From assembly GCA_000165345.1 (NCBI GenBank), contig CM000434.1:192001-256000 (forward strand): a DNA stretch of 64,000 nucleotides, in the 5' to 3' direction. Position numbers and translations under genes: made by a program. This document shows, in pieces, positions 331-62,812 of this stretch. How positions within the stretch are numbered: position 1 is the stretch's first letter; each line of letters starts with the position of its first letter. The notes under the pieces were generated by a model. It had not been told where the DNA came from. It searched no databases and saw only the letters and a program-made list of their open reading frames with translations.

Positions 331-3303
331 TCAAGAAAAATCATATCCAAATACAGTTCTCTTTGGCTGAGCTGATGATCCTTTACTTTCACACCATTTA
401 ATAAATTCTGGATTACTACCACATGTGTATACATCATTAACATAACAGCATCCACATGATGTTGCTCCATCAGAAAAAGATATTACACCAATTGGATTTG
501 GCCAATATAATGGAGGATAGAAAGTTCCAAGCCAACCAATAACAAAGTAAAATAAGAGTAAAATTCCTGATAAGATTCTAAAAGTCCACAATAATTTCTT
601 TTCACGAAGACTTTTAATACGATTCTTGAAATATATTTTAATTTTGTTCTTTATTGGTATCTTTTCAGTTGGAATACGATCAATCAAAATGGTTAAATCT
701 GTACGCCTTTTTATTCCATTTTCATCTACAATTAAACCAAGACTATCAGTAATTTCTCCTTGGATCTGTTCAATCTTCATTTGTTTAATTAAAGCATTTT
801 TCTTTATACGTTGGTTTTTTCTCCATTGCTCAGCGATTTTGGCATTTCTTTTTTCAATCTTTCTTATTTTCTTCTCCTCAAGTTGACGATTAATCCATTC
901 TTTATCTTGTTTCATAAAAAGTCGAAATAATGGAAGAGCTGCCATTCTATTATATCTATCTAATCTATCCTCAGGAGAACAACCTTTACAAGCTTTCATT
1001 GTAGCGAATGTATAAAGTATACCAACTACAAAACCACCAATATGCGCCCATGGATTTGTTACACCTGTAAATGATAAAATCATACCAATAATAAGCGAAA
1101 ATAAACTAAAAATGAACATAAACATTGGTGCAGGAAGATTATTCCAATTCTCAAAAGTATATGGAATTGAAGCTGCTGTAATTCCAAATAAACCACCAGA
1201 ACTTCCAACAGTTAGTGAACAAGGAGATATTACTGCTACTGCTAGATTACCACCAACACCTGATAAGAAGAATAATAAGAAGAAACGTAAAATGCCCCAA
1301 TCTGGTTCAATCATATATCCTAATTGAGCTTGAGATATTACATTAAATCCAATATGTATAAATCCAGTATGCATCCACATTGCCCAAAACATACGAATCA
1401 TTTCACCTTGTCTTAATTCATTAACAACTAAACCTCCAAGAGCACTTAAAGTTTTTGAACAAGGTCCAAGCATAGAGTTCATACTGAAAGATTCAACATA
1501 TACACCACCACAATTACCATTATCCCATTTATTAAGACGATTGTAAATGAGAGATTGGAAGAAAACACCAACTAGAGCAAATGATGTTGTTAATACAACA
1601 AATATTCTTCCATGTATTGGATTAACCCATTTTCTGAATTTGGAAGCAATTTTTGTTTGAGAAATTGGGTCTAATTCACTAACATGATATGATTTATCAA
1701 CTTTAATAGCATCTAATGGAAGTTCTTTTGCATAAGGTCCAACAGCAATATCAATTTGAGTTTCTTCTCCATAAAGCCATTTAAGATGTCCAGTAAGTCC
1801 ATGTTCATCAAGTTTAAATGTATTACCATGTTCAAGACTGGTCGAACTTTTAAGCTTTTGTTGTTGGTTTTGGATTTCACCCATCTTTACCATTTGTACA
1901 CTAGTTCTACCTACAGCTTTGCCTTCATTTGCAAGTTCTTCATCATAATTAACAACTTGAGATTCCGATACTCTATGATTTGTTGTTGGTATTGTTAATC
2001 CATCTGGTCCTAATAAATTATTATTATTACCTAAAACTATTGGTACACCTAATCCAGAAATGGCTCCTTGATTTCCATTATTTTCATCATTTTCTTCTGG
2101 TTCAATATTTACCATAGCTTCAACAATTGTTTTAAAGCCTTTCTTTTTTGAAATGGACCGTCTTAGGTTATTCATTCCACTGGATTTACTAATATTTCCA
2201 TTGGATGATAATCTTGTTTGAATAGAATTTGGAGCCGGAGCTGGAGCTGGAGCTGGAGCTGGAGTTGGAACAGGAGTTTGAGCTGAAGCTGGAACAGGAA
2301 CTGGTACCGGTACTATAACTGGAGCTGAATTTTTATTGTGTTTTGGGACAATCTTAGTATTTAAAATTGAGTTTCTCGGTCTTGTATCATTCGGATTTGG
2401 AATATCAACAACAACTTTATTCCCAGAAAAGGAATCACCTCTATTCAAGCTATTTTTATGTTGATTACTAAATTGATCATTTCCAATTTTTCTCTCTTGA
2501 ACCTCATCAGAAGGCATAATTACCTCCATTCCATTAATTACTTCGGTACCTCCTAATACAGCCCCTCCTGCTTTGCTATAAAGAGAAGTTGAAGTCCTTT
2601 TTTCTCCTGGTTTATTTGAATGCGGAAATTCACTTTCTGTTAAATCTCTACCTCTTGATTGGAATTTCTTTGGAACATTCTTTCTCTCATCAGAACTGGC
2701 TGGAGGAACACTGAATAATCTTAATTCATCATTGGTTGGATGTCTTCTTTCATTTAAATCTTCATCTTTATTGTAGTCTGGTTGTAATCTTAAAGATTTT
2801 CTTGGAGAAGGTTGAGCTGAATTAACTTCTTTATCTGTTGAAATTTTTTTCACTAAAAGTGGAGTAGGAGTAGCATTACTGGTATTATATTTATTTTCTG
2901 TTGATCCTCCTGGTGTTTGTTTTGCCTTAGTTATTATTGGAAAGGAATTCTTAGTTGAATATTTTGATCCATTTTGATTTTTTGGAGAAACTTTCATTGG
3001 TTTATTCATTCCAAATAAATTATTGGCCTTTGAATCAACACCTAAATTACTTCCACTTAATGATGAATTTCTTTTGAATGATGAAGATCTTTGTGGTGAT
3101 AAAGGAGTTATACTTGATCTTGGAGAAGAACCTGATCCACCACTAAATTTTGGCATTGGAGCACGCGATCCTCCTCCACTAGTACCAGCGCCAAATATAG
3201 GTGATCCTGGTGATGTTGGAGATCCTGATGTACCACCACCTGGGATTGTTTTTACTATGGGTCTTTTTCCTCCATCTTTGAAAACAAAATCGGACATATC
3301 CAT
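331..3303 (-). CDS. Rhomboid-family intramembrane serine protease with a 6+1 TM core at the C-terminus. It is preceded by an ~550-aa Ser/Thr/Pro/Asn-rich low-complexity N-terminal extension.
   Basis: One 990-aa ORF with an ATG start at 3303. The catalytic GxSG motif is present (GSSGGLFG) in a TM helix. A downstream His lies in AHIGGFVVG. Multiple hydrophobic helices are followed by a 7th TM near the C-terminus. A (PA/PV)n tract is encoded by a hexanucleotide repeat. Confidence 0.8.
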   Translation of the reverse strand: MDMSDFVFKDGGKRPIVKTIPGGGTSGSPTSPGSPIFGAGTSGGGSRAPMPKFSGGSGSSPRSSITPLSPQRSSSFKRNSSLSGSNLGVDSKANNLFGMNKPMKVSPKNQNGSKYSTKNSFPIITKAKQTPGGSTENKYNTSNATPTPLLVKKISTDKEVNSAQPSPRKSLRLQPDYNKDEDLNERRHPTNDELRLFSVPPASSDERKNVPKKFQSRGRDLTESEFPHSNKPGEKRTSTSLYSKAGGAVLGGTEVINGMEVIMPSDEVQERKIGNDQFSNQHKNSLNRGDSFSGNKVVVDIPNPNDTRPRNSILNTKIVPKHNKNSAPVIVPVPVPVPASAQTPVPTPAPAPAPAPAPNSIQTRLSSNGNISKSSGMNNLRRSISKKKGFKTIVEAMVNIEPEENDENNGNQGAISGLGVPIVLGNNNNLLGPDGLTIPTTNHRVSESQVVNYDEELANEGKAVGRTSVQMVKMGEIQNQQQKLKSSTSLEHGNTFKLDEHGLTGHLKWLYGEETQIDIAVGPYAKELPLDAIKVDKSYHVSELDPISQTKIASKFRKWVNPIHGRIFVVLTTSFALVGVFFQSLIYNRLNKWDNGNCGGVYVESFSMNSMLGPCSKTLSALGGLVVNELRQGEMIRMFWAMWMHTGFIHIGFNVISQAQLGYMIEPDWGILRFFLLFFLSGVGGNLAVAVISPCSLTVGSSGGLFGITAASIPYTFENWNNLPAPMFMFIFSLFSLIIGMILSFTGVTNPWAHIGGFVVGILYTFATMKACKGCSPEDRLDRYNRMAALPLFRLFMKQDKEWINRQLEEKKIRKIEKRNAKIAEQWRKNQRIKKNALIKQMKIEQIQGEITDSLGLIVDENGIKRRTDLTILIDRIPTEKIPIKNKIKIYFKNRIKSLREKKLLWTFRILSGILLLFYFVIGWLGTFYPPLYWPNPIGVISFSDGATSCGCCYVNDVYTCGSNPEFIKWCESKGSSAQPKRTVFGYDFS
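2231..2312. repeat. (GGAGCT)n / (GGAACAGGA) hexanucleotide microsatellite inside the rhomboid CDS. It encodes a PVPVPAPAPAP tract.
   Basis: Direct reading of ggagctggagctggagctggagctggagttggaacaggag. Confidence 0.8.
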
Positions 3304-4110
3304 TTTATCTTTTCCTAATAATTATATTTTTTTCTTCTTTATTTATATTAATTGGTAGAAAAGGGTTTATTTTTGTGAGAAGGGGATTAATATTATATTA
3401 AAAATTAATCTCAGGGAGTTTGAATAGATACAAAAACTTTTCCCCCAAGTAAATATATTTATATTTTAATATATTCTTTTCAAATTATATTAATCCTTTA
3501 ATTTCTCTTTCTTTCTCGTTATTGCTATTATTTATTATTATCCTCAAATATAAATAAATATTCTTCTTAATAACTATTCGATATTGATTTTGAATGAATT
3601 CTCCTTACAAACTTTTCTTTGTTCACTTCTAATTCGTTAATTCAGTCTGAATCTTCTGTAATATTCAAATGTTAATATTCAATTATTTTCAGTAATTAAA
3701 TCTTATAAATCATTGATTTCTAGCTAGTTATTTTATTCTGTACTCTTCAAACCCAAAAAAAAAACTACTTAACTTGGTCCTAACTTTATTAAATTAAATT
3801 TCCAAATCCTCTAGGTAGCACTATTCAAAAATATTTGTATTTAAAAAAGGAAATTTTCTGATTTACTTGTACATTACATTAAAATATGTAGTCCCCTAAT
3901 CACATATATATATACTTATATTTATCAACTTTTTTTCCTCCTCCTCTTTTTAAAATTATCTGTTTAATATTGGTTACACTTTCACAATTATAAGAAGATT
4001 AAGGAAAAAAAAACCAATAAATTACTGTAAACCCATTTATTGACTTTTTTACCCCCACCCTGCATTCCTGCTTCACTTACACACAAAAAGTCTTTAATAG
4101 ACGGATGAAT

Positions 4111-4122
4111 TTTGGCGGGAAA
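4111..4122. promoter_or_regulatory. E2F-type box TTTGGCGGGAAA, upstream of the rhomboid gene.
   Basis: It matches the canonical E2F consensus TTTSSCGC. It is a GC island in AT-rich spacer. (T)GCATGC lies 15 nt downstream. Confidence 0.45.
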
Positions 4123-4386
4123 TCCGCAATTTTTTTGCATGCTACAAAAAGGCGGGTTGTGGGGGAGGAATAATGAAAATTTAAAAAAAATAAAGAAAAA
4201 AAAATTGGAAGATCGATAAGTAACTTCTTATTTGCATTGATATATTTATGATATGACTGTTATTAAAAAAGATATTTAGTAAATATAAAGAGTAGGAAAA
4301 ACTAATATTCTAATCTTTCTTATCATAATTAATCAAATAATTTACTTTGTGACTTTCACCCAGAAATTTTTTGAGATTATAAAGAA

Positions 4387-4439: not shown

Positions 4440-4655
4440 TTAATTATGAACATTATTATTTGATGAGATACTATTAGATTGTTGAGAAGTTAAGATTCTG
4501 GAGTTATTTTCTTGGGAGCTTATATTGAGATTAGTTTGGATGGAATTTAAATCTTCGTTTTCTTGTAGTTGTTTTGCTTTGTTTTTAATTCTCTCTTTTA
4601 AATCATTAATATCTTGAATTTTTAGTTCAATCAGAGTTCCTGGTCGAGTAAGCAT
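4440..4655 (-). CDS. Small hypothetical coiled-coil/Asn-Ser-rich protein (71 aa). It may be an exon of a larger gene.
   Basis: It is an ORF only. It has its own upstream region (4656-5260) with TGGCGCC-type boxes at ~5036 and ~5118. No homology is recognised. Confidence 0.2.
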   Translation of the reverse strand: MLTRPGTLIELKIQDINDLKERIKNKAKQLQENEDLNSIQTNLNISSQENNSRILTSQQSNSISSNNNVHN

Positions 4656-12867: not shown

Positions 12868-13064
12868 CCCCATACCGGTATACACATAATTATTAATTTG
12901 TTTTTAATGTGGATGAAATTAATATGCATGCATGCATGTAAAATGTTGAAAATGACGTGTATATATACATACAATAAAAATGTGTAGATAAATATTTTTT
13001 CTTCTAAAGCATTGAATAACTATAATAATAATATTTGAATATATAAATATATATATTTAAATAT

Positions 13065-14577: not shown

Positions 14578-23643
<9,066 letters not shown>

Positions 23644-47828: not shown

Positions 47829-49475
47829 ATGGGTGGACAAAAAATTAAAAAAGGAACTAGAGGAGATAGTGCAATGTTTATTACAAGGGCACAAGCTATA
47901 AAGCGTCTTCAAGTATCTTTAGCAGATTTTAGAAGACTATGTATTTTGAAGGGAGTTTATCCAAGAGAACCAAAAAAAAAGTTGAGTGGATTGGATAAGA
48001 CTTATTATCATTTAAAGGATATTATACATTTAAAACATGATCCAATATTATCCAGAATAAGAGAATTAAAAATTCATTTGAGAAAATACAGAAAAGCAAT
48101 GGGACGTAATGACAAAACTAAAGCTCGTTCAATTAGAGAAAATAAACCAATAATTACTTTGCAACATATTGTTAAAGAAAGATATCCATGTTTTGTTGAT
48201 GCCTTAAGAGATCTGGATGACGCTCTTTCAACTTGTTCATTATTTGCATCATTAGGAGCTGATGATAATTATAGTATTCGTTCTAATATGATCAAAAAGT
48301 CAACTTATTTGATAGATGAATTTATGTACTTAGTATCAGAACTTGGATTCTTAACAAAATCTTTTATTTCTATAAAAGGTTTCTATTTCCAAGCAAAAAT
48401 TCTTGGCGAGACAATCACATGGCTTGTTCCACATCAATTTGCACAAAGTATTCCAGATGAAGTAGATTTTAAAGTTTTGTCAACATTCTTGGAGTTTTAC
48501 CATTCATTATTAAAGTTTGTTAATTTTAAGTTATACCAACTTAATAATTTAACTTACCCTCCAACAATTAATACTCCAATTTTTGATAATGGAGGAAGAT
48601 TCCTTTCACTTCATGCATATAATCTTTCCAAATTGAATTCTAACATTCCTTCGAATGTTGAACAAAAAGTGGAAAAAAAACGTATTTTTGAAGGACTCAC
48701 TTTCTTTATTTCTAGAGAAGTTCCACTTCTTCCTTTAGCTTTTGTAATTAAAAGCTTTGGTGGTAAAGTTGGATGGGAAAACCAATTTTCAAGTATTAAA
48801 CAGGATGATGAGGGAATTACACACTATGTTATTGATAGACCCATTAATTTCCTTAAAAGTTTCATAGATAAACACCCAAATTGTGAGTTTATTCAACCTC
48901 AATGGGTATTTGACTCTATGAATGAATCAATTAGATTACCTACACGTCCTTATGGCCCTGGTGAAAAGTTACCTCCACATCTATCTCCATTTGTGGATGA
49001 TAGTACCCAAGGTTATATTCCAACTCAGAGACAAGTTCTTGATGAAATTAAGGAATCCAATAGTCATAAATCTCAATCTTGCTTATCTGAAGATGAATCA
49101 ACAGAAATTGATGAACTTTCAGAACATGATTCTGATATTGAAGTTCAACAAGCTAGAGAAGATGCCTACTTTGATTCTATTGAGAGAGAACAATCATTAT
49201 CAACCTCAAATGAAATTGATTCAATTGATAACGAGCATAAAGATTCATCCAATTTTACAACAGAATCTGAATTAACTAATACAAAAGATAAAGTAAATAT
49301 TGCTAGAAAGCTCGCGAAGAAACGTAAAGAAGAGGAACAAAGAGAACAACAAAAGACTCTACTCAAAAAGAAGCATAAGAGACTTTTACAAAGAATTGAA
49401 TATTCTAACAAAATCGCTTCGGAGAAAGCAGAAAGGTTGGAATCTCGAAGAAAATTATTAAGTAAAAATAACTAA
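47829..49475 (+). CDS. NOP7: Pescadillo (Nop7/PES1) 60S ribosome-biogenesis factor. It has an N-terminal pescadillo domain and a BRCT domain.
   Basis: The N-terminus (KKGTRGDSAMFITRAQAIKRLQVSLADFRRLCILKGVYPREPKKK) matches the conserved pescadillo start. A BRCT-like block is IFEGLTFFISREVPLLPLAFVIKSFGGKVGWE. An acidic/basic tail follows. Confidence 0.85.
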   Translation: MGGQKIKKGTRGDSAMFITRAQAIKRLQVSLADFRRLCILKGVYPREPKKKLSGLDKTYYHLKDIIHLKHDPILSRIRELKIHLRKYRKAMGRNDKTKARSIRENKPIITLQHIVKERYPCFVDALRDLDDALSTCSLFASLGADDNYSIRSNMIKKSTYLIDEFMYLVSELGFLTKSFISIKGFYFQAKILGETITWLVPHQFAQSIPDEVDFKVLSTFLEFYHSLLKFVNFKLYQLNNLTYPPTINTPIFDNGGRFLSLHAYNLSKLNSNIPSNVEQKVEKKRIFEGLTFFISREVPLLPLAFVIKSFGGKVGWENQFSSIKQDDEGITHYVIDRPINFLKSFIDKHPNCEFIQPQWVFDSMNESIRLPTRPYGPGEKLPPHLSPFVDDSTQGYIPTQRQVLDEIKESNSHKSQSCLSEDESTEIDELSEHDSDIEVQQAREDAYFDSIEREQSLSTSNEIDSIDNEHKDSSNFTTESELTNTKDKVNIARKLAKKRKEEEQREQQKTLLKKKHKRLLQRIEYSNKIASEKAERLESRRKLLSKNN

Positions 49476-49690
49476 TCCAGGTTGAACTATTTTCTTATAT
49501 TCGTTCAATAAGTTAGAAAAAAAAAAATTCAGGTAATACCTTTGCAAGACTTTGCACTAGTATTTTAAATTTTATATTTAGATATTAAAATAATCATAGT
49601 AATAACTCTATATATTATCTCTATATTTCATTTTTGCTTTTCTATTGCTATTTCTCAAAAATCCTATTATTTTCTATATGCATGCAAATT

Positions 49691-49700
49691 CATTTCAAAG
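49691..49700. promoter_or_regulatory. TTCCCGCCAT box preceded by TGCATGCAAA. This is the first copy of a duplicated promoter module upstream of the Sec14-like gene.
   Basis: Direct reading. A second copy lies at 50019-50030. Confidence 0.4.
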
Positions 49701-50018
49701 TTCCCGCCATTATATGAAATCTTTTATCAACCGATTCGTAAAGATAATTGAAACCACAAATTTATAAATTAAACACCGCAAAAAAAAAAAAATGGGCTCT
49801 TTAACAGTAATGAAAATTGATTAGTTAATATTACAAATGAGATATTTTCAAAAGCCAATACATTTTTAAAAAATTGAAAATCAAAATAGTTAAATAAAAA
49901 TGATTCAAAAATAAATATAATTTATTATTACCATTATTTTTTCAGAATTAATTTTGAAAATATTATACAAATTATTATTTGCATGCAAAAGTTTTGTCCT
50001 CATGGAAAATTTGATAAA

Positions 50019-50030
50019 TTTTCCCGCCAT
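50019..50030. promoter_or_regulatory. TTTTCCCGCCAT box preceded by TGCATGCAAA. This is the second copy of the duplicated module, ~210 nt upstream of the Sec14-like ATG.
   Basis: Direct reading. Confidence 0.4.
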
Positions 50031-50236
50031 GTGAATAGATCTTGTAAGTGCTGTACTTTAAAAATAAAAGTGATATAAAAAAAAGTGTGAAAAGAGGGGC
50101 AGAATTTCTGAAATTTTTAGATAGAAAGAAAAAAGATTCGGGTTCTTTTTTTTTCTTTTTTTAAAAAAAAACTTTAAGAAAGCGAGAAAGGAGTTCTGTG
50201 ATTGTGGGAAAGCTAAATTGAACAAGGAGCTGAAAC

Positions 50237-51559
50237 ATGGTAAATTACAAGATTAGTCCAATACTTTCAGAGTGGAAAAAAACTCCACAAGGTCCAGGAG
50301 CTAAAACTGAAAAAGAAGAAAAAGCCTTATCAAGTTTAAGACAATTGTTAGAGGTTCAGAATAAGGCAGCAGAAAACAAGCAAAACTTAGAGAAACAAAA
50401 GGCAGCAAATGGTCTAGTAAAAAAACAGTCAACTTCAGAGGCTGTATTTGATAAAATTAAACACTTTGCTTCTTCAGCTTTTAAGAATAAAGAATCATGT
50501 GTTATCTCTTCTGTTTCATCACCAAACAAACCAGGAAAAATTATTAAGACCCGTCTTCTTCTTAAAGCTCCTTTAAGCCCATATGAATTGGATTGGTGTA
50601 CTGATGCATGCTTATTACGTTATTTAAGAGGATATAACCTCAAAGTTATTAAATCATTTGAAGCATTAGCAAAAACTATCCACTTTAGACGTAAGTATGC
50701 ACCTCAATTTATTAGTCCAAGAAATATTAGTTCTGGAAATAATGTTGAAGGATTGATTAGATATGGTCTTGATAAGGAAGGTCGTCCATGTATATTTATG
50801 AGAGCTAAATACAGCGACTCTAATATTGATGTTTCTCTTGTATTAAATTCTCTTTTATATTCAATGGAGAGAGCATGCTTGTATATAGATCAAGTAAGTA
50901 CTAGTGATAACAAAATTAACTTGATTGTTGATTTTACTGGTTATAAAAGCACTCAACAACCACCAGTTTCTTTATCTCTCAAATTTGCTAAGGCAATGGT
51001 TGACCATTATCCAGAGAGATTACATAGAGCATTCATCATACAACCTGGTTGGTTCTTCAAGGCTGTATGGGGATTAATTAGTCCATGTATTCCAGGTAAT
51101 ACTGCAGAAAAGTTTGTTTTAATTGATCCAGAATCTGATGGTTCAGAAAGCTTTAATGCATTAAAGTCATACATTGAAGATAAGTATTTGGATAAGGAAT
51201 GGGGTGGATCTTGTGAGGATGTTTTTGATCCAAATGAATATTGGCAAAAAGAAAATACTGAATTTGATAAGTTTTGTGAATTTTGTCAAAATAACTTTTA
51301 TACACCTGAACATCCTATTCCAGTCATTGATCCAAATTCAAAATCTGCAGTGAAAGTACCAACAGATGTTGATCCTACTGAAGTTCCACAACTTGCTGTT
51401 GCATTGCTAGATGATGAGGATATTGATCCAAATGAGCCGGTTGAGGATGGTGGTCATCAACCTGGAGAACCTTTCAAACCATTAAGCCAACAGCAATCCG
51501 AGGAGATTGAGGAGAACAATGATTTTGATGTATTGGATGATACAAATACTTCACAGTAA
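50237..51559 (+). CDS. Sec14-like CRAL-TRIO lipid-transfer protein, with an N-terminal coiled region and an acidic tail.
   Basis: CRAL-TRIO motifs are present: DACLLRYLRGYNLKV...FRRKY and DHYPERLHRAFIIQPGWFFKAVWGLISPCIPGNTAEKFVLI. Confidence 0.75.
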   Translation: MVNYKISPILSEWKKTPQGPGAKTEKEEKALSSLRQLLEVQNKAAENKQNLEKQKAANGLVKKQSTSEAVFDKIKHFASSAFKNKESCVISSVSSPNKPGKIIKTRLLLKAPLSPYELDWCTDACLLRYLRGYNLKVIKSFEALAKTIHFRRKYAPQFISPRNISSGNNVEGLIRYGLDKEGRPCIFMRAKYSDSNIDVSLVLNSLLYSMERACLYIDQVSTSDNKINLIVDFTGYKSTQQPPVSLSLKFAKAMVDHYPERLHRAFIIQPGWFFKAVWGLISPCIPGNTAEKFVLIDPESDGSESFNALKSYIEDKYLDKEWGGSCEDVFDPNEYWQKENTEFDKFCEFCQNNFYTPEHPIPVIDPNSKSAVKVPTDVDPTEVPQLAVALLDDEDIDPNEPVEDGGHQPGEPFKPLSQQQSEEIEENNDFDVLDDTNTSQ

Positions 51560-52162: not shown

Positions 52163-54363
52163 TTAAGAAACAGACTTCCAAATAAACGATCCATCTGGTC
52201 TGTCCTCCAAAGTAATTTTCAATTTGGAGAGTTGTACATCTCTTACTTGGTCACATTTAGAAAGTAGAGATATTGATGACTTATTCACTTCATCGATAAG
52301 GCTTCCTACATTACCAAAATCATTGTTTGAAATTGCCTTCTTTTCTTTTCTGCATAATCCCATAAGTTTCTTAGATTCCTCCTTGGCACAACTTCTAAAT
52401 CCTCCAATAATCTCCATGAATTCATTAGTGAGTTCTTCTACTTTGGAGTTATCATAAGCAGAATCGCAAGTGTCTTTGTAATTAAGCTTTTCATTATCTT
52501 CACCACATAAACCAAGTATCGATAAAATCTTGTAAACATATGTGGCACAACGTCTTAAGATATTTCCAACAATCTGATCATCTGATTTTAAGTTCATGTA
52601 ACTATTTGCAACAGTAACAAGAGACTGAAGTGCTTGAATAACTTCTGGAGTATTTATATTGTCTTTAAAGAATTCATCAATCTAAAAAGAAAAAAAAAAT
52701 TAAATTAATTTTAATGTTCGACAAAAAGTTCATTTAGAAGTAGGAAAAAAAAGTTACTGAGTTCTTCGTTACTCTTTACTCCAAACTTCCTATTCTCCAC
52801 TCTAATGTATATATCTCCCCAATAAATTAAATCATAAACTGTTCAAAAAAGAAAAAAAGAGATTGAACATTTTAGATTTAATGAGAATGTTCGTGACGGT
52901 ATTTTAAGATGTATTTCTACAATGAAAAAAAATACATTATAAATATACCAACATGAAAGAGTACACGTGTCAATGCATGCATGCATGCACAACATTTGTA
53001 CTCTAATTAGTATAGCAAGCTCTTAGTGCCTAAAAAAGCTATGAATAGAAAAGCTTCAAGGAGTGGAATCTTGCATATTACCAAATCAAGATGGGGGGAA
53101 AAAATACAATAAGAGTAGATTATATTGTAAACTTACCTTTTCACTGGAAGATTCAATTGCAAGCCTGAGTTTCTCTTCTTCGATATCATGTTTCTGTGAG
53201 TTTTTCAAGTAGGACGTCCTAAGGCGTGCTTTAACATTAGCAAAAAAGTTGACAAAGGTTTTGTCAACAGCAATAGCTTCTTGTAAAGAAGTTTCTGGTG
53301 AGTAATTCATAGGTGCATCCCATTTATGGAGAAGGAAAAGCATCCTAATGTGTCTGGGTGAGTTTTCCTTAAGGATTTCCTGAATAGTAGTAAAGTTTTT
53401 AAGACTTTTAGACATCTTGGATCCGTGAATATGAAGATGACCAGAATGAAGGAAGTAGTTAACCCACTGGGCTTGATCATAATGAGCCTCACTTTGAGCA
53501 AGCTCATTATCATGATGAGGGAATCTCAAGTCAATACCTCCACTGTGAATGTCAATTGGGAATCCAAGAGTATTTGAAGCCATGACAGAACATTCAATAT
53601 GCCATCCTGGTCTACCTTTTCCCCAAGGACTATCCCAACAAGGCTCCTCAGGCTTTGCTTTCTTCCAAAGAGCAAAATCCAAAGGACTCTTCTTATCCTT
53701 AAGATGTTCTCCAAGTTCACCTTCACCTTCTAATACTCTATTAACATCAGCAACACTCTTTGGCTCCATTCTTCCATATACATGCTTTTCATCAGCTCTG
53801 AATGATTCTACATCAAAGTAAACACTTCCTTCTGATTCATAAGCAAAACCTCTAGAAATAATTGTAGAGATAAAATCAATAATTTCAGGAATAAATTCAG
53901 ATACCCTTGTAACAACATCCGGCATCTTAACATTTAAAGCCTTCATATCATCAAAGAATTCAAGTTCAAATTCTCTAGCCAAATCTAAAAAGTTTTCTCT
54001 TTTTTGCTCATTAGATCTCTTAATGATTTTATCATCAATATCTGTAATGTTCATAACCAAATAAACATCATACCCAAAGTAATCCTCTAATACTCTCCTA
54101 ATTATGTCAAAAGTTACATAATTTCTAGCATGGCCTAAATGAGCTGAGTCATATACTGTAGGACCACATGCATACCAGTTCACTCTTCTACCATTCACTG
54201 GTATAAATTCTGTCCTCCCTCCTGTCATACTATTATTAAGCATTAATCCTGTCGAATAAGAACATCTCTTTGATGCAGAACTCGTATCACCTGATTCTGC
54301 ATTAGAAAAACATCTTGTTGGTGGGATCCAATCTGCCATTCCTTCTGCTGTATTTAAACCCAT
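52163..54363 (-). CDS. Cysteinyl-tRNA synthetase. Two exons: join(54363..53137, 52681..52163), separated by an unusually long ~455-nt intron.
   Basis: Class-I HIGH ([10 protein letters not shown]) and KMSKS motifs. CysRS-specific WHIECS. Exon 1 ends ...SSEK directly at a GTAAGT donor. The acceptor ttttag precedes [19 protein letters not shown]..., which joins the ORF 52163-52597 (the C-terminal anticodon-binding region) in phase 0. Confidence 0.8.
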
Positions 54364-59481: not shown

Positions 59482-60453
59482 ATGAATTATTGTAAACTAA
59501 GATGGAGCCTAATTGTGCTCATATTAGCAATTGTAATTTCTTCAAATTATTGTTTTGGTAAGGATAATACTGATAATAAAGGTAACTCAATTGCTAAAGA
59601 TGCAGATAATGGTGAGATTTCTGAAAAAGGAGATCATATAGTGACACCTGATCAAGACTCTAATTCGGAAAATAGTGAAAATTTGGATGAAGGGGAAAAG
59701 AAGGAAGATGGTGATAAAAAGGAAGAAGGAGATAATAAAGAAGAGGGAGAGAAAAAAGAAGGAGATAAGAATGAAGATGGTGAGAAGAAAGAAGGAGATA
59801 AGAACGAAGAGGGTGAGAAGAAAGAAGAGGGTGAGAAGAAAGAAGAGGGGGATAAAAAAGAAGATGGAGATAATAAAGAAGAGGGAGAAAAAAAAGAAGA
59901 GGGAGAAAAAAAAGAAGAAGGAGATAATAAAGAAGAGGGAGAGAAAAAAGAAGGAGATAAGAATGAAGATGGCGAGAAGAAAGAAGAAGACAAAAAGGAA
60001 AATGGAGAGAAAAAAGATGGAATTGAAAAGTTTGGAGAGAACTCTGACATTGAAAATGGGATTATTGACAATAAAGAAGATTCAGTGGAAGACCAAGAAA
60101 ATACTGAAAGCCAGAAAGAGGAAGAAAAAAAAGATAATGGAGATGGAGAACAACAGGATTCAATTCATACAAGTATTATGGAGGGTTTGTATAAGTTAGA
60201 TTATAAATTAAAGTTTTTGAGAAGGATGCTAAGAAAAGACAAAAAAATGATTATTCAGATACATGCTTTAGGTTATTTGGTTAATACTATAAAAGAACAG
60301 ATTGTGAGAGACGTAGCAGCATTGAATGCAATAGTAAAATTGGAGGCAGAAAATGCTAGTGAATTAAATAAATTACAGTCAGTGCATGATAACCATGTAA
60401 ACAATAGATTAGATTTTATTAAACATGAAAATATAGTTCAAGTAAATAATTAA
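59482..60453 (+). CDS. Secreted Glu/Lys/Gly-rich tandem-repeat protein (323 aa). It has a signal peptide, ~11 copies of an EKKE(E)GDKNE(D)G-type unit and a C-terminal coiled coil.
   Basis: Leader MNYCKLRWSLIVLILAIVISSNYCFG. The DNA tandem repeat at ~59690-59995 creates artefact ORFs on both strands. Confidence 0.55.
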   Translation: MNYCKLRWSLIVLILAIVISSNYCFGKDNTDNKGNSIAKDADNGEISEKGDHIVTPDQDSNSENSENLDEGEKKEDGDKKEEGDNKEEGEKKEGDKNEDGEKKEGDKNEEGEKKEEGEKKEEGDKKEDGDNKEEGEKKEEGEKKEEGDNKEEGEKKEGDKNEDGEKKEEDKKENGEKKDGIEKFGENSDIENGIIDNKEDSVEDQENTESQKEEEKKDNGDGEQQDSIHTSIMEGLYKLDYKLKFLRRMLRKDKKMIIQIHALGYLVNTIKEQIVRDVAALNAIVKLEAENASELNKLQSVHDNHVNNRLDFIKHENIVQVNN

Positions 60454-60664
60454 TTAGCTAATTTTATTATTGTTATTATTTTTAAATGTTTCCTCACATT
60501 TTAAATTCTCATGTCATTGAGCGGCACAAAGAAAGCTTGCAAATTTGCAAATGCATGCACCTAATCCAACTAATTAGCTTTCATGTGGACAATAATCAAT
60601 ACAATGAAAACATTAAGTTAATGAAAACAAAAAAAAAGAATGAATTTAGAAAATTAAATAGAAC

Positions 60665-62812
60665 TTAATTTTGATTTTTAAGGAAAATATTTGGTATCTC
60701 TCTCATTTTACAAGTTTTTGCTCTTGCAGGTGAAGGAGTGGTAATCTTCCTTCTCCTTTGGATAGGAGTTACCGTTCTATGAAAGCACATTGGATTGGGC
60801 TTAAAGCTTCGAATGGGGGTTTCAGATGATTTCCAATTATTCAATTTTGTAGGACTGCTCAGTATACTATTAGTATGATTACTGAAATTTGAAGTGTCAG
60901 AATTTGTGCAAGTGTTGATGGTACTACCAGTATTTGTATTTGCTTTATCATTATGACTTTTGAGAGTAATTTTCTCAATGCAAATATTATTATTCAAGTT
61001 TATATCAACAAGAGGTTTGGTAGGCGATTCCAAAATGCCATTGCAATCATTTGCAGTTTGGTCATAAAACTTATTTCTCAAGTGTACAACAATTACAGTG
61101 CAGTTATCAGCCCGAATATTACTCATTCTTCGTTTTCTCTCAGCTTCAGTTGTAAGCAAACTAGCGATTTCTTGCATACTCTTATCTTGAGAATCAACAA
61201 TAATGTCAGCAATAGTAAAACCATCTAATATATCACTGACTCCATCAGACATAATCACAATATAAGAATCTTTCCACGGTTTACCATCGCACCCTCCATT
61301 GATAGCTAAATGGTTTGAAAAGCTTTCATCATCAGTGCCCCAGTCTAACTCAATATTTTCAACATGATTATTACTTTTATAAATGCTCGGTCTGTTTCCC
61401 CAACCAATAGCAATAACGCTCTGTTCAATTAGCGCTTCGGAAAAACATGCCATATTCTCATCCTCTATCTTGGCCCTTTGGCTATCAACAGTTTGTCTCC
61501 GAATGGAGTTAATACACTCCTTCCTTGGAGGAATACCTCCTAAGTTTAAAATTCGGTAATCTGGTGTTGGTAATAAAGCGCATCTAGAAAGATGCATATG
61601 ACCAAGAGATCTACTCATTGAAATACTTAATCCCAAGTCCCTAGCCTGCGAGTATGAAAGATAAGAAGGAATCAGTCTAAGCATACCGTAGTCCCCCAAT
61701 ACAACTTTCCCTACTCCGCTTTGGTCTATTCTCTGCCTCTCACTCTTTCTATTCAGACAATGGGGATTTGAAAGATAATATATTCCATGGAAGTTAGAGG
61801 TAGTTTGACCAGATGACTTGTTATAAGATAAAGGAACTGGAAGATCTGGAAGTAAAACTTTTGAATTCCCATTATCTCCTCCTTCAATATGTCGGTCATT
61901 AACACTATTGTGACTTTCATCATAACTACTACTACTACTAGTGGAGCTCATATTTTTGCTACCAATATTGTCACTATAAATTGTACTAAAATCCCGATTA
62001 TTTCCAATATTTCCGAAATTATAATGACCAGAGTTAGTGAGTCCAGGATTCTCCCCTGGTTTTTGTTGGAATCCACCATTTCTATCCAGATTTGGAATTA
62101 TACAAATTGCAGATGAATCACCGCAATTAGCTGTTACTAGATATTGATCAACAATTCCAACTACAACACAAGTAGTACCAAAATCTTTTTTGCTTGAAAT
62201 ATTTGCATTAATAACGCTATCATGAGCATAAGTAAACCCTCTGTTCAAGACAAAAAGAATTTGTTCAACATAATCGGCGATAGCAATATTTCTTGGAATA
62301 TCTGGAACTTCCTTACTTAAAATTTTAGATATACAATAACCTGCCACATGAGAGGCAGTCTTTCCATAATGTCCATGCCCATCTAGAAGACCAAAGAAAC
62401 AAGAGTTATTTGAATCCTCTAACTTATTACCTGTCGAGTGAGAATTCCATCCAGGGCCATTTCTTTTTGGTGGTAATGGTGGTAATGTAAACAAAGGAAA
62501 AACTGGAGGAAATGCCTCGTTTATTATTTCATCTAAACAATGTACATCTTTTTTGGAGTATGGCATTCCTTGAGGGCAAAAGGTGCCAGCATTTGCTAAA
62601 TTTGGTTGAATTGGGTCAAAATTCCACACTCCTTGTGAAAACCCAAGCTTCTCCAACCTTTCATCTTTTAAATTGCCATTCTGTCTCTTACTTTGATTTT
62701 CTTTCTTATTATTGGACTTCTTCTGAGCTGGTATTGATACAAACCAGCCGTCTTGGTTTTCCTTGCATCCACCCTGGGAACAAGATACACCCCAATCAAC
62801 CAACCAATTCAT
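60665..62812 (-). CDS. PP2C-family Ser/Thr protein phosphatase with a large internal low-complexity insertion. 715 aa.
   Basis: PP2C motifs in order: FFGLLDGHGH, ANCGDSSAIC and IVIMSDGVSD. The start is MNWLVDWGVSCSQGG... (PP2C motif-1 like). Confidence 0.75.
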   Translation of the reverse strand: MNWLVDWGVSCSQGGCKENQDGWFVSIPAQKKSNNKKENQSKRQNGNLKDERLEKLGFSQGVWNFDPIQPNLANAGTFCPQGMPYSKKDVHCLDEIINEAFPPVFPLFTLPPLPPKRNGPGWNSHSTGNKLEDSNNSCFFGLLDGHGHYGKTASHVAGYCISKILSKEVPDIPRNIAIADYVEQILFVLNRGFTYAHDSVINANISSKKDFGTTCVVVGIVDQYLVTANCGDSSAICIIPNLDRNGGFQQKPGENPGLTNSGHYNFGNIGNNRDFSTIYSDNIGSKNMSSTSSSSSYDESHNSVNDRHIEGGDNGNSKVLLPDLPVPLSYNKSSGQTTSNFHGIYYLSNPHCLNRKSERQRIDQSGVGKVVLGDYGMLRLIPSYLSYSQARDLGLSISMSRSLGHMHLSRCALLPTPDYRILNLGGIPPRKECINSIRRQTVDSQRAKIEDENMACFSEALIEQSVIAIGWGNRPSIYKSNNHVENIELDWGTDDESFSNHLAINGGCDGKPWKDSYIVIMSDGVSDILDGFTIADIIVDSQDKSMQEIASLLTTEAERKRRMSNIRADNCTVIVVHLRNKFYDQTANDCNGILESPTKPLVDINLNNNICIEKITLKSHNDKANTNTGSTINTCTNSDTSNFSNHTNSILSSPTKLNNWKSSETPIRSFKPNPMCFHRTVTPIQRRRKITTPSPARAKTCKMREIPNIFLKNQN

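Follow-up and report, generated by a model that had tools for sequence, protein, structure and literature searches.

Gene regulation in Cryptosporidium, including the part played by E2F/DP relative to the ApiAP2 factors, is poorly understood, and to our knowledge no Cryptosporidium promoter has been dissected box by box. The general idea of homotypic clusters of binding sites, and of site turnover in compact eukaryotic promoters, is well established from work on yeasts and animals. Site clustering and turnover have also been discussed for ApiAP2 networks (PMC4117751). The best-known over-represented upstream motifs of C. parvum are AP2_1 and an E2F-like motif (PMC3734150, PMC4117751). AP2_1 (BGCATGCAH) was originally described as an over-represented octamer of chromosome 6 noncoding DNA; protein-binding microarrays showed that it is recognised by the ApiAP2 domains of cgd2_3490, cgd1_3520, cgd8_3230 and cgd5_4250 (PMC3734150, PMC4117751). 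E2F-like motif 4 (TTTGGCGGGAAV), the presumed target of E2F (cgd1_1560, cgd6_1430) with DP (cgd7_3650, cgd8_1850), is the most abundant upstream motif (PMC3734150), and E2F is the dominant motif of those sporozoite ATAC-seq peaks that lie at transcript 5' ends (bioRxiv 10.1101/2025.01.17.633476). Extended consensuses for both, ANTTGCATGYA and TTSSCGCCWAA, are given in a published motif supplement (PMC7840661 Suppl. S3).

The 64,000-nt stretch analysed here (the window) belongs to chromosome 6 of Cryptosporidium parvum, and two pairs of these motifs lie within the 761-nt intergenic spacer between a Pescadillo homologue and a Sec14/CRAL-TRIO gene (Table 1), a spacer longer than the genome mean of 504 nt (PMC7840661). 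The Sec14-like protein is 100% identical to its C. parvum Iowa II counterpart, and the Pescadillo gene occupies the same position at every orthologous locus compared. Both pairs are on the strand of the downstream Sec14-like CDS; the distal one begins 204 nt after the Pescadillo stop codon, and the E2F-like sites are 535 nt (distal) and 215 nt (proximal) before the Sec14-like ATG. A sequence-only reading had described the two as copies of a tandemly duplicated promoter module. All of the strings that it quoted are indeed present where it placed them, TGCATGCAAA starting at 49679 and 49980 and TTCCCGCCAT at 49701 and 50021.

Table 1. Features of the Pescadillo–Sec14-like interval (positions are those of the window)
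Feature	Position	Strand	Remarks
Pescadillo homologue, upstream gene	47829..49475	+	548 aa; Pfam Pescadillo_N E = 1e-100 and BRCT domain
Distal AP2_1-type site TGCATGCAAA	49679-49688	+	fits BGCATGCAH and TRCATGCAANT
Distal E2F-like site TTCCCGCCAT	49701-49710	+	GGCGGGAA on the - strand
Distal ATCTT	49719-49723		
Distal ATCTTTTA	49719-49726	+	degenerate counterpart of proximal ATCTTGTA box; on the offset-320 diagonal of the dot-plot
Proximal AP2_1 site TGCATGCAAA	49980-49989	+	palindromic context ATTTGCATGCAAAA
Conserved box TTGTCCTCATGGAAA	49994..50008	+	resembles lncRNA-promoter motif5 TTGTCCACATK
Proximal E2F-like site TTTTCCCGCCA	50019..50029	+	includes canonical TTTCCCGC core; 207-218 nt before ATG
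Proximal 10-mer TTCCCGCCAT	50021-50030	+	
Conserved box TAGATCTTGTA	50036..50046	+	8-10 nt past E2F core; contains ATCTT 50039-50043
Presumed 5' UTR of Sec14-like mRNA	50049..50236	+	putative role
Conserved palindromic block GAATTTCTGAAATT	50102-50115		inside presumed 5' UTR
Pdr17p-like Sec14/CRAL-TRIO domain protein, downstream gene	50237..51559	+	440 aa; Pfam CRAL_TRIO E = 6e-30

The identity of the shared motifs is clear. The string TGCATGCAA at 49679 and at 49980 meets the AP2_1 consensus (BGCATGCAH in Oberstaller et al. 2013, TRCATGCAANT in Li et al. 2021), and both copies also fit its extension ANTTGCATGYA; like the described AP2_1 sites they are noncoding and upstream of a gene. In sequence these predicted sites show no difference from AP2_1; the distal instance is not conserved past C. 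hominis. The core TTCCCGCCA of the E2F-like sites, in a TTTSSCGC-type context, is identical to that of motif 4, and the location of the proximal site, which carries the canonical TTTCCCGC, about 200 nt before the ATG fits that of published E2F sites at transcript 5' ends and in ATAC-seq peaks; the two positions past CCA are TG or TT here and AA in the consensus. As the flanking AAA and A belong to the extended consensuses, the extended 10-mers are fully explained by known motifs.

These words are also far more frequent in the window than base composition predicts. Against a composition null, TGCATGCA has 11 matches for 0.40 expected (about 27-fold), TTCCCGCC 9 for 0.14, GCATGCAAA 9 for 0.50 and TTCCCGCCAT 2 for 0.02, so that both cores are enriched more than 25-fold window-wide and well beyond this locus alone. 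GCATGC favours noncoding DNA, which makes up 31% of the window and holds 8 of its 13 sites or clusters.

Between and beyond the two proximal cores, 31 nt apart, lie two further boxes. The first, TTGTCCTCATGGAAA, had been passed over by the sequence-only reading; its portion TTGTCCTCATG differs by one mismatch from motif5, TTGTCCACATK, in the supplement of Li et al. 2021 (PMC7840661 Suppl. S3), and adjoins the AP2_1 site just as motif5 does in many of the lncRNA promoters given there. TTGTCCWCAT has 2 matches in the window, against 0.34 expected. In the second, TAGATCTTGTA, the string ATAGATCT matches exactly motif 19, HTAGVTCW, of the 'Unknown set 1' of Oberstaller et al. 2013 (PMC3734150), and its C. 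canis version, GATCTAG, matches GAYCTMD of the same set (PMC3734150). The distal copy differs in both respects: the TTGTCC box is missing from it, and of the 8 positions of HTAGVTCW it fits only 6. As a general motif TAGATCT finds no support from window-wide enrichment (11 matches, 17.8 expected), and we regard the TAGATCTTGTA box as a candidate initiator or else as a possible site for some factor.

Comparison of orthologous loci shows that these four boxes, TGCATGCA, TTGTCCTCATGGAAA, TTTTCCCGCCA and TAGATCTTGTA, form a phylogenetic footprint. Proximal TGCATGCA is unchanged in C. hominis, C. tyzzeri, C. meleagridis, C. ubiquitum, C. canis and one Logan contig (L007), and reads TGCATG in C. felis. 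The TTGTCCTCATGGAAA box is invariant from C. parvum to C. canis, reading GTCCTCATGA in C. felis and the same Logan contig and GTCCCCAT in C. ryanae. The E2F-like site consists of invariant columns in a 7-species alignment and is present in C. felis and C. ryanae, with GGGGCGGG at the equivalent place in C. andersoni, and (T/C/G)(A/G)GATCT was found in all 10 genomes examined, C. andersoni included. Over its whole length the proximal set (49980-50046) is 99% identical in C. meleagridis, 84% in C. ubiquitum and 79% in C. canis, against 79-86%, 60-64% and about 50%, respectively, for the flanking spacer. All four boxes are still recognisable in C. felis, and versions of them in C. ryanae, two species in which the surrounding spacer can no longer be aligned. 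Conservation well above that of flanking noncoding DNA was thus found for the proximal set only. The proposal of a functional promoter module holds for this copy, with cores invariant or recognisable in eight other Cryptosporidium genomes amid unalignable spacer, and on this comparative evidence the gene-proximal set is almost certainly such a module.

The same pattern bears on the idea that neither set is functional, both being chance clusters of words common in the C. parvum genome. Because neither word is rare in the noncoding DNA of C. parvum, where both occur often, their meeting in one long spacer is less improbable than the composition null implies, and from the density of pairs in the window we estimate the probability of a second AP2_1–E2F pair within 500 nt at about 0.03-0.07. 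Chance, however, cannot yield a proximal set kept as a block in about 10 Cryptosporidium genomes with its surroundings unalignable, and we consider this explanation scarcely credible.

Conservation extends past the footprint towards the ATG. The interval 50049..50236 is 94% identical in C. meleagridis and 75% in C. ubiquitum, above the spacer upstream of it (79-86% and 60-64%), and is presumably the 5' UTR of the Sec14-like mRNA; within it, positions 50096-50115, which include the palindromic block, are 80% invariant among 6 species (20-nt windows). Within the spacer, conservation is lowest in the DNA between the two motif sets, where 63% of positions are invariant in the four close species. 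Several other candidate features were considered and set aside. A 5' UTR intron starting at ATCTT|GTAAGT (50044/50045) would have poor donors in other species (GTATTT, GTATCT) and no conserved acceptor AG; the GTA is conserved, yet C. ryanae and C. andersoni have no donor. A coding uORF from the ATG in TCATGG conserves neither peptide nor reading frame, its pattern being box-like rather than codon-like. Between the two copies, ORFs reach at most 55 aa, with starts that are non-ATG or unconserved, in the least conserved region of the spacer, which speaks against a small protein gene, and an Rfam scan of the spacer gave nothing near threshold, so a reading as an ncRNA gene was dropped. Logan contigs L018-L020 were rejected as transcript evidence, being colinear with the genome, retaining the CysRS intron and ending at homopolymer runs, and are uninformative on the TSS.

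Is the distal set a copy of the proximal one? As for tandem arrangement, the copies are indeed 300-320 nt apart, but they are dispersed in the spacer rather than placed head-to-tail. In a dot-plot of the spacer (49476-50236) against itself, the comparison by which the sequence-only reading proposed that its claim could be refuted, there is essentially no similarity past the cores: the two 10-mers fall on different diagonals, with offsets of 301 and 320. Apart from A/T-only runs, the exact direct repeats of at least 8 nt are these 10-mers and an 8-mer, CTCTATAT, unrelated to the modules, and neither repeat finder nor dot-plot detected an extended direct repeat joining the copies in this interval. 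The spacers between AP2_1 and E2F sites differ in length (12 nt distally, 31 nt proximally) and show no similarity to one another (P = 0.82), so that the colinear similarity expected of a whole unit of about 60 nt, spacers included, is lacking. Nor is the internal architecture the same, the TTGTCCTCATGGAAA box being absent distally and only the E2F–ATCTT spacing (10 nt) being common to both. Scored against random intergenic DNA, neither flank aligns better than chance when gaps are allowed in the local alignment (P = 0.44 and 0.91). The claim of shared sequence beyond the cores survives weakly: ATCTT follows TTCCCGCC by 10 nt in both copies, while GAA can be aligned only with indels.

What remains in favour of copying is marginal and is found in ungapped register. 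A true segmental duplication would have placed an ancestral module about 300 nt upstream, where all but its binding sites decayed and 19 nt disappeared, the TTGTCC box among them; in a variant of this scenario, distal GCATGCAAA would be the diverged counterpart of the proximal TCATGGAAA box. Three elements have equal order and orientation in both copies, and along the ungapped diagonal at offset 320 the distal CATGCAAA-N12-TTCCCGCCAT-N8-ATCTT-N-TA faces the proximal CATGGAAA-N12-TTCCCGCCAT-N8-ATCTT-N-TA. Anchored on the E2F site, the flanks match at 24 of 48 positions, ranking first among the 45 TCCCGCC site pairs in the window (mean 15.2, sd 3.65), with P = 0.012 against random intergenic DNA. 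Separate comparisons of the upstream 30 nt and the downstream 20 nt gave 17/30 and 11/20 (P = 0.008-0.04), and composition-matched shuffles put flank similarity at P = 0.016-0.044. Together with the equal ATCTT offset, this may reflect some shared ancestry or constraint beyond the cores. All of these P values are nominal, however, several registers having been inspected, and the next-best, unrelated site pairs reach 21/48, only 3 matches less.

Timing also argues against this scenario. Since neither C. ubiquitum nor C. canis has the distal set, the event would have to postdate that split, after which the proximal copy has hardly changed; a paralog so young should be about 60-85% identical throughout, instead of the roughly 50% observed outside the E2F core. 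With the spacers and gapped alignments at null, and the 10-mers fully accounted for by the published consensuses, a segmental duplication appears unlikely. The shared order is no evidence for it, as AP2_1 followed by E2F recurs elsewhere in the window and in lncRNA promoters; given known consensuses and a recurring order, both the order and the 10-mers are what two independent site clusters would be expected to share. The tandemly duplicated module is therefore not supported, and the evidence for a true duplication is weak.

The distal set (49679-49726) has had a different history from the proximal one. Its AP2_1-type site is unaltered in C. hominis and in the C. parvum isolates; C. tyzzeri has ACATGCAAA there and C. 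meleagridis has ACATGCATA, and C. ubiquitum and C. canis lack the site. Its E2F-like site reads TTTCCCGCC in C. hominis and C. tyzzeri, being one T shorter in C. parvum (TTCCCGCC), and TTTCCGCC in C. meleagridis; in C. ubiquitum the alignment is gapped here, and C. canis has nothing that can be aligned. Where C. parvum has distal ATCTTTTA, C. hominis has ATCTATTA and C. meleagridis has ATCCATTG, and a stretch that varies in this way is not constrained. Substitutions fall within both cores in C. meleagridis, and among the core changes is a G in C. parvum and C. hominis that is an A in C. tyzzeri and C. meleagridis. Identity of the whole set is 82% in C. meleagridis, equal to that of neutral flanks, 59% in C. 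ubiquitum and 26% in C. canis; conservation above flanking noncoding DNA at orthologous loci, as expected of a footprint, was not found. The set thus appears to be a young, lineage-restricted second set of the same site types, with no detectable purifying selection.

Alternatively, the distal set might be a functional promoter of its own, recent in the C. parvum/C. hominis lineage, which could provide an upstream alternative TSS for the Sec14-like gene or drive a bidirectional or antisense ncRNA over the Pescadillo 3' end or into the spacer. In the 100 nt preceding C. parvum lncRNAs, the two leading motifs are E2F and AP2_1, which co-occur at some of them, and most of these lncRNAs are antisense and start at gene 3' ends (PMC7840661); the distal set lies about 200 nt beyond the Pescadillo stop, in a spacer exceeding the genome mean in length, and shows no differences among the seven C. 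parvum assemblies covering it (two further contigs start downstream of it and are outside this count). Against such a role stand its divergence at the neutral rate, with both cores hit, the poor conservation of the DNA between the sets and the lack of an Rfam family match. As for a published lncRNA driven from either set, the portion of the Li et al. 2021 sequence and motif tables that was searched (PMC7840661) has none that matches this spacer or the 3' end of Pescadillo, and six probes and both E2F 11-mers are absent from it. We consider a separate promoter quite improbable. Cp_lnc_213, suspected on the basis of its gene-ID number, lies outside the window; the NCBI locus tag CPATCC_002604 is not turned into a CryptoDB ID by adding a zero.

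Two separate site clusters, the proximal one the working promoter of the Sec14-like gene and the distal one a lineage-restricted set produced by site turnover, seem to us the probable explanation. This explanation builds on the observed motif identity, enrichment and conservation pattern and on the lack of colinear similarity, from which we infer that factors bind, where the TSS lies and that the distal set has little or no function. The proximal cluster, with its AP2_1, TTGTCCTCATGGAAA, E2F and TAGATCTTGTA elements, would be bound by TGCAT-binding ApiAP2 proteins and an E2F/DP heterodimer and would mark open chromatin, with transcription starting no more than a few tens of nucleotides past it and leaving a 5' UTR of perhaps 150-200 nt. 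Ordinary binding-site turnover, rather than copying of the proximal unit, is the most likely reason for the origin or persistence of the distal cluster, which would be at most a weak auxiliary, alternative or bidirectional promoter. The resemblance to homotypic clusters lies in the presence, within one spacer, of an ancient cluster under constraint and of one that is younger, evolves fast and consists of the same types of site; it is less complete in that a redundant or 'shadow' role of the distal cluster is only putative and that this cluster may be non-functional. One observation sits awkwardly here: neutrally drifting AT-rich DNA is very unlikely to hold two perfect G+C-containing 10-mers with 12 nt between them, so that the set must stem from selection or from a functional sequence, at odds with its neutral-looking divergence.

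The upstream region of the Sec14-like gene appears, from these comparisons, to be a real, conserved promoter made of known motifs, and as such largely ordinary. Both core motifs and their abundance were already published, the locus leaves current knowledge unchanged, and the duplication that made it seem special is not supported. What it does offer is a compact, roughly 70-nt promoter with four footprinted boxes and, at a distance of 300 nt, a natural comparison in the form of a second cluster of these two site types that is free of constraint. A single lead has wider interest, namely a possible rule for the relative orientation of AP2_1 and E2F sites.

Such a rule would be an undescribed grammar, in which a TGCAT-type ApiAP2 site is preferentially found on the T-rich (5') side of the asymmetric TTCCCGCC E2F site, often within a few nt; we put it forward as doubtful. 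If true, it would imply cooperative or ordered binding of ApiAP2 with E2F/DP. The four boxes of the Sec14-like promoter (AP2_1, TTGTCC box, E2F, GATCT box) would then exemplify it in deeply conserved form, and the GATCT box could be a genus-wide initiator-like element. In the window, 3 of 8 noncoding sites have GCATGC on the 5' side of TCCCGCC at a distance of 16-35 nt, where 0.13-0.33 would be expected, and a fourth such pair lies inside a large ORF; AP2_1/E2F pairs in the window are in the same order in four cases and reversed in one. Among the published lncRNA promoters listed in the supplement portion considered, AP2_1 is on the TT side of a CCGCC-type E2F site in 12 of 14 (one-sided P = 0.0065, with a post hoc selection rule and an assumed coordinate convention for the table). 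A strict AP2_1-N12-E2F spacing, suggested by a third composite at 4142-4114 that shares N12 with the distal copy, was rejected, as it is not conserved in the orthologues of 4142-4114 and spacings in the listed lncRNA promoters are mostly shorter than N12. Counting against the grammar as well, neither the AP2_1 partner nor the spacing of this third composite is conserved in C. ubiquitum and C. canis; its E2F-like site and the block downstream of it are conserved in both species.

The ORF at the downstream end of the spacer considered here is 100% identical to the C. parvum Iowa II 'Pdr17p-like Sec14 domain containing protein' and carries a Pfam CRAL_TRIO domain, with identical copies in chromosome-scale C. 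parvum records including BX526834 (at ~236-243 kb of the ~1.3-Mb chromosome). Upstream of it lies a Pescadillo homologue (by Pfam), and the order rRNA methyltransferase (-), Pescadillo (+), Sec14-like (+), Cys-tRNA synthetase (-) is common to all Cryptosporidium genomes fetched. The spacer between the two co-oriented genes contains two motif sets, distal and proximal to the Sec14-like gene, each with an ApiAP2 site (AP2_1) and an E2F-like site, and every string quoted in the sequence-only reading is present where that reading placed it.

Features of the Pescadillo / Sec14-like spacer and same-order motif pairs elsewhere (window positions)
Feature	Position	Strand	Length	Remark
Pescadillo homologue ORF	47829-49475	+		
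Pescadillo / Sec14-like intergenic spacer	49476-50236		761 nt	flanking genes co-oriented
Distal TGCATGCAAA	49679-49688			
Inter-motif spacer, distal copy			12 nt	
Distal TTCCCGCCAT	49701-49710			
Distal ATCTT	49719-49723			
Proximal TGCATGCAAA	49980-49989			
Inter-motif spacer, proximal copy			31 nt	
Proximal TTCCCGCCAT	50021-50030			
Proximal ATCTT	50039-50043			
Sec14-like ORF	50237-51559	+		
GCATGCAAA-N12-TTCCCGCC composite, third in window	4142-4114 (region 4040-4142)	-		same order
GCATGC-N27-TCCCGCC	20834-20873 (20834/20867)	+		within 3021-aa ORF 14578-23643 (-)

The observation of two motif sets is accurate and non-random. Against dinucleotide shuffles of the window (G+C ~30%), GCATGCAAA occurs 9 times where 0.50 are expected and TTCCCGCCAT twice where 0.02 are, and the window holds 11 copies of TGCATGCA (0.40 expected) and 9 of TTCCCGCC (0.14 expected). 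This enrichment is a window-wide property, the majority of the sites being found in noncoding DNA (20 kb of the window). Both cores match published C. parvum cis-motifs, making the locus an ordinary instance of known promoter motifs: AP2_1 is BGCATGCAH and E2F-like motif 4 is TTTGGCGGGAAV (Oberstaller et al. 2013, PMC3734150). The AP2_1 octamer was first reported from noncoding DNA of the same chromosome as the window (PMC3734150; PMC12246861 Table 3), and TGCAT(GCA) is bound by four ApiAP2 domains on protein-binding microarrays (Oberstaller et al. 2014, PMC4117751). In sporozoites, the ATAC-seq peaks found at the 5' ends of transcripts are dominated by the E2F motif (Xiao et al. 2025, bioRxiv 10.1101/2025.01.17.633476), and AP2_1 and E2F are the top two motifs within 100 nt upstream of lncRNAs, with the extended consensuses ANTTGCATGYA and TTSSCGCCWAA, respectively (Li et al. 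2021, PMC7840661). As the bases that follow the cores ('AAA' next to GCATGC, 'A' next to TTCCCGCC) already belong to these extensions, the identical 10-mers say almost nothing extra about common descent.

The proposal that the two sets are tandem duplicates of a ~60-nt promoter module is not supported by a self dot-plot of the spacer, whose outcome comes close to the one that the sequence-only reading named as refuting it. The plot reveals no colinear repeat structure: the two 10-mers sit on separate diagonals (offsets 301 and 320), the rest being A/T-only low-complexity words and an unrelated 8-mer, CTCTATAT. With cores removed, the two inter-motif spacers show no similarity (P = 0.82) and the 60-nt flanks are at the null in gapped local alignment (P = 0.44 and 0.91). 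Anchored ungapped comparison finds marginal similarity, with 17/30 matches in the 30 nt upstream of the AP2_1 site (P = 0.008 against a random intergenic null, 0.03 against composition-matched shuffles) and 11/20 in the 20 nt downstream of TTCCCGCC (P = 0.037 and 0.016 against the same two nulls). Of the single registers, the E2F diagonal fits best: on it, the distal CATGCAAA aligns with the proximal TCATGGAAA box (each 12 nt ahead of TTCCCGCC) and not with the proximal GCATGC; ATCTT-N-TA lies 10 nt 3' of TTCCCGCC in both copies. E2F-anchored flanks match at 24/48 positions (P = 0.012), the top value of the 45 TCCCGCC site pairs in the window (mean 15.2, sd 3.65), exceeding several unrelated pairs by just three matches. 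An old duplication of the module could have left this faint residue, but it is a weak explanation. Since the distal set is unalignable in C. canis and its E2F core coincides with a gap in the alignment to C. ubiquitum, any duplication would postdate the C. ubiquitum split; the proximal copy has barely changed since then, and a duplicate that old would be expected to far exceed ~50% identity outside the E2F core, which is evidence against duplication.

The shared order of the sites is no evidence for local duplication either, because promoters of this genome repeatedly have the same order and orientation, with GCATGC to the TT side of TCCCGCC. The arrangement is found at other sites in the window, where reverse-order pairs at most 60 nt apart number only one. 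Same-order GCATGC partners accompany 3/8 noncoding TCCCGCC sites (0.13-0.33 expected; P = 0.0002-0.002), two of these three being the distal and proximal sets themselves. An independent test used the lncRNA promoter motifs tabulated by Li et al.: of the 14 promoters listed that combine AP2_1 with an asymmetric CCGCC-type E2F site, 12 have their nearest AP2_1 on the TT side (one-sided binomial P = 0.0065), often 1-5 nt from the E2F site. An AP2_1-to-E2F orientation grammar seems doubtful, and the rule is a soft one, as orthologues of the 4142-4114 composite in C. ubiquitum and C. canis share its E2F-like site but not its GCATGC or its spacing. Strongly conserved with that E2F-like site is a long downstream block, CATC(C/T)GTCTAT(T/C)AAAGAC(T/C)TTTTGTGTGTA(A/C)GT. 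The composite is separated by ~810 nt from the start codon of a 990-aa rhomboid-like gene downstream of it (331-3303, -), and this long distance, together with a conserved GTAAGT/GTACGT, suggests a 5' UTR intron and, as first exon, a short non-coding one. The 20834-20873 pair may have arisen by chance or may act as an internal or antisense promoter.

Orthologous spacers were fetched from C. hominis, C. tyzzeri, C. meleagridis, C. ubiquitum and C. canis (two assemblies), and further ones from C. felis, C. ryanae, C. andersoni and a Logan contig (its protein 93% identical). They uphold the idea of a functional module for the proximal copy only, which is a conservation island and is richer than the sequence-only reading described, having a footprint of four boxes (AP2_1, TTGTCC, E2F and GATCT). 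Its identity to C. parvum is 99% in C. meleagridis, 84% in C. ubiquitum and 79% in C. canis, versus 79-86%, 60-64% and ~50% for flanking spacer. From C. parvum through C. canis, TGCATGCA, TTGTCCTCATGGAAA, TTTTCCCGCCA and TAGATCT(T/A)GTA show little or no variation; C. felis has recognisable versions of all four boxes (TGCATG / GTCCTCATGA / TTTCCCGCCA / GGATCTTGTA) and C. ryanae of three, and C. andersoni has a GC box, GGGGCGGG, then GGATCT, with the GATCT box 11 nt 3' of the GC box. The TTGTCC box resembles motif5 of Li et al. (TTGTCCACATK), a frequent companion of AP2_1 in lncRNA promoters (PMC7840661), and the proximal ATAGATCT matches Oberstaller motif 19, HTAGVTCW (PMC3734150). Across intestinal species the distance between the GATCT box and the E2F core hardly varies (8-10 nt), and the box is a candidate initiator-like element. 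From this box to the ATG, conservation is higher than in the upstream spacer (94% in C. meleagridis, 75% in C. ubiquitum), which fits a transcribed 5' UTR. The presumed UTR holds a perfect palindrome-like block, GAATTTCTGAAATT (AATTTC-T-GAAATT, 50102-50115), which does not vary between C. parvum and C. ubiquitum, is almost unchanged in C. canis and is not enriched elsewhere in the window.

The distal copy, by contrast, evolves at the neutral rate. Its identity to C. meleagridis (82%) is that of neutral flanks, with 59% (13 gaps) in C. ubiquitum and 26% of few aligned positions in C. canis, where no alignable distal-set sequence was found. The set is intact in C. hominis and in the seven C. parvum assemblies spanning it; C. 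tyzzeri reads ACATGCAAA, and C. meleagridis reads ACATGCATA and TTTCCGCC. It matches neither Rfam families nor the published lncRNAs among sequences listed in PMC7840661. Judging by its sites, it can probably bind the same two factors as the proximal set, and there is no sign that it is needed. Less likely, it might drive an alternative or antisense transcript.

By analogy with published work, the proximal TGCATGCA would be bound by one or more TGCAT-binding ApiAP2s and TTTTCCCGCCA by an E2F/DP heterodimer, for which candidates are cgd1_1560 or cgd6_1430 (E2F) and cgd7_3650 or cgd8_1850 (DP; PMC12246861). Their binding may open chromatin and place initiation within ~100 nt downstream, as for lncRNA promoters, E2F 11-mers lying 11-99 nt ahead of the start among those listed (PMC7840661). 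The resulting Sec14-like 5' UTR would be ~150-200 nt long.

The ATG in the conserved TCATGG box starts a 10-codon uORF (50001-50033, stop TGA); in C. ubiquitum and C. canis its counterpart is terminated by the TAG within the TAGATCT box. Neither peptide nor frame is conserved, so the uORF is probably incidental; it would be relevant only for transcripts initiated 5' of the E2F site. Between promoter module and ATG, the two C. canis assemblies (L001 and L002) differ by ~172 nt, and the run CCCCCCCCCCCCCCGCCCGGGGGGGGGG that L001 bears there (2860-2870) appears to be an artefact of assembly or sequencing and not biological.

Other motif sites occur in the window. A second E2F site, GGCGGGAA (4395-4388, -), lies 45 nt beyond the stop codon of a 71-aa ORF (4440-4655, -), the counterpart of which is a called 72-aa gene in C. 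ubiquitum (L021 1145-1363) with a weak Pfam ANAPC_CDC26 match. Overlapping tandem runs are found at 12925-12936 (TGCATGCATGCA) and at 52974-52989 (TGCATGCATGCATGCA, three overlapping AP2_1 octamers), the latter in the gap that separates the Cys-tRNA synthetase gene into two ORFs, the gene's annotated intron region. A GCATGC 24 nt away from ATGTGGACAA, whose minus-strand reading TTGTCCACAT matches the published lncRNA motif5 exactly, is found at 60553-60592, where 211 nt separate the convergent ORFs 59482-60453 (+) and 60665-62812 (-); Li et al. 2021 (PMC7840661) describe this arrangement upstream of antisense lncRNAs.
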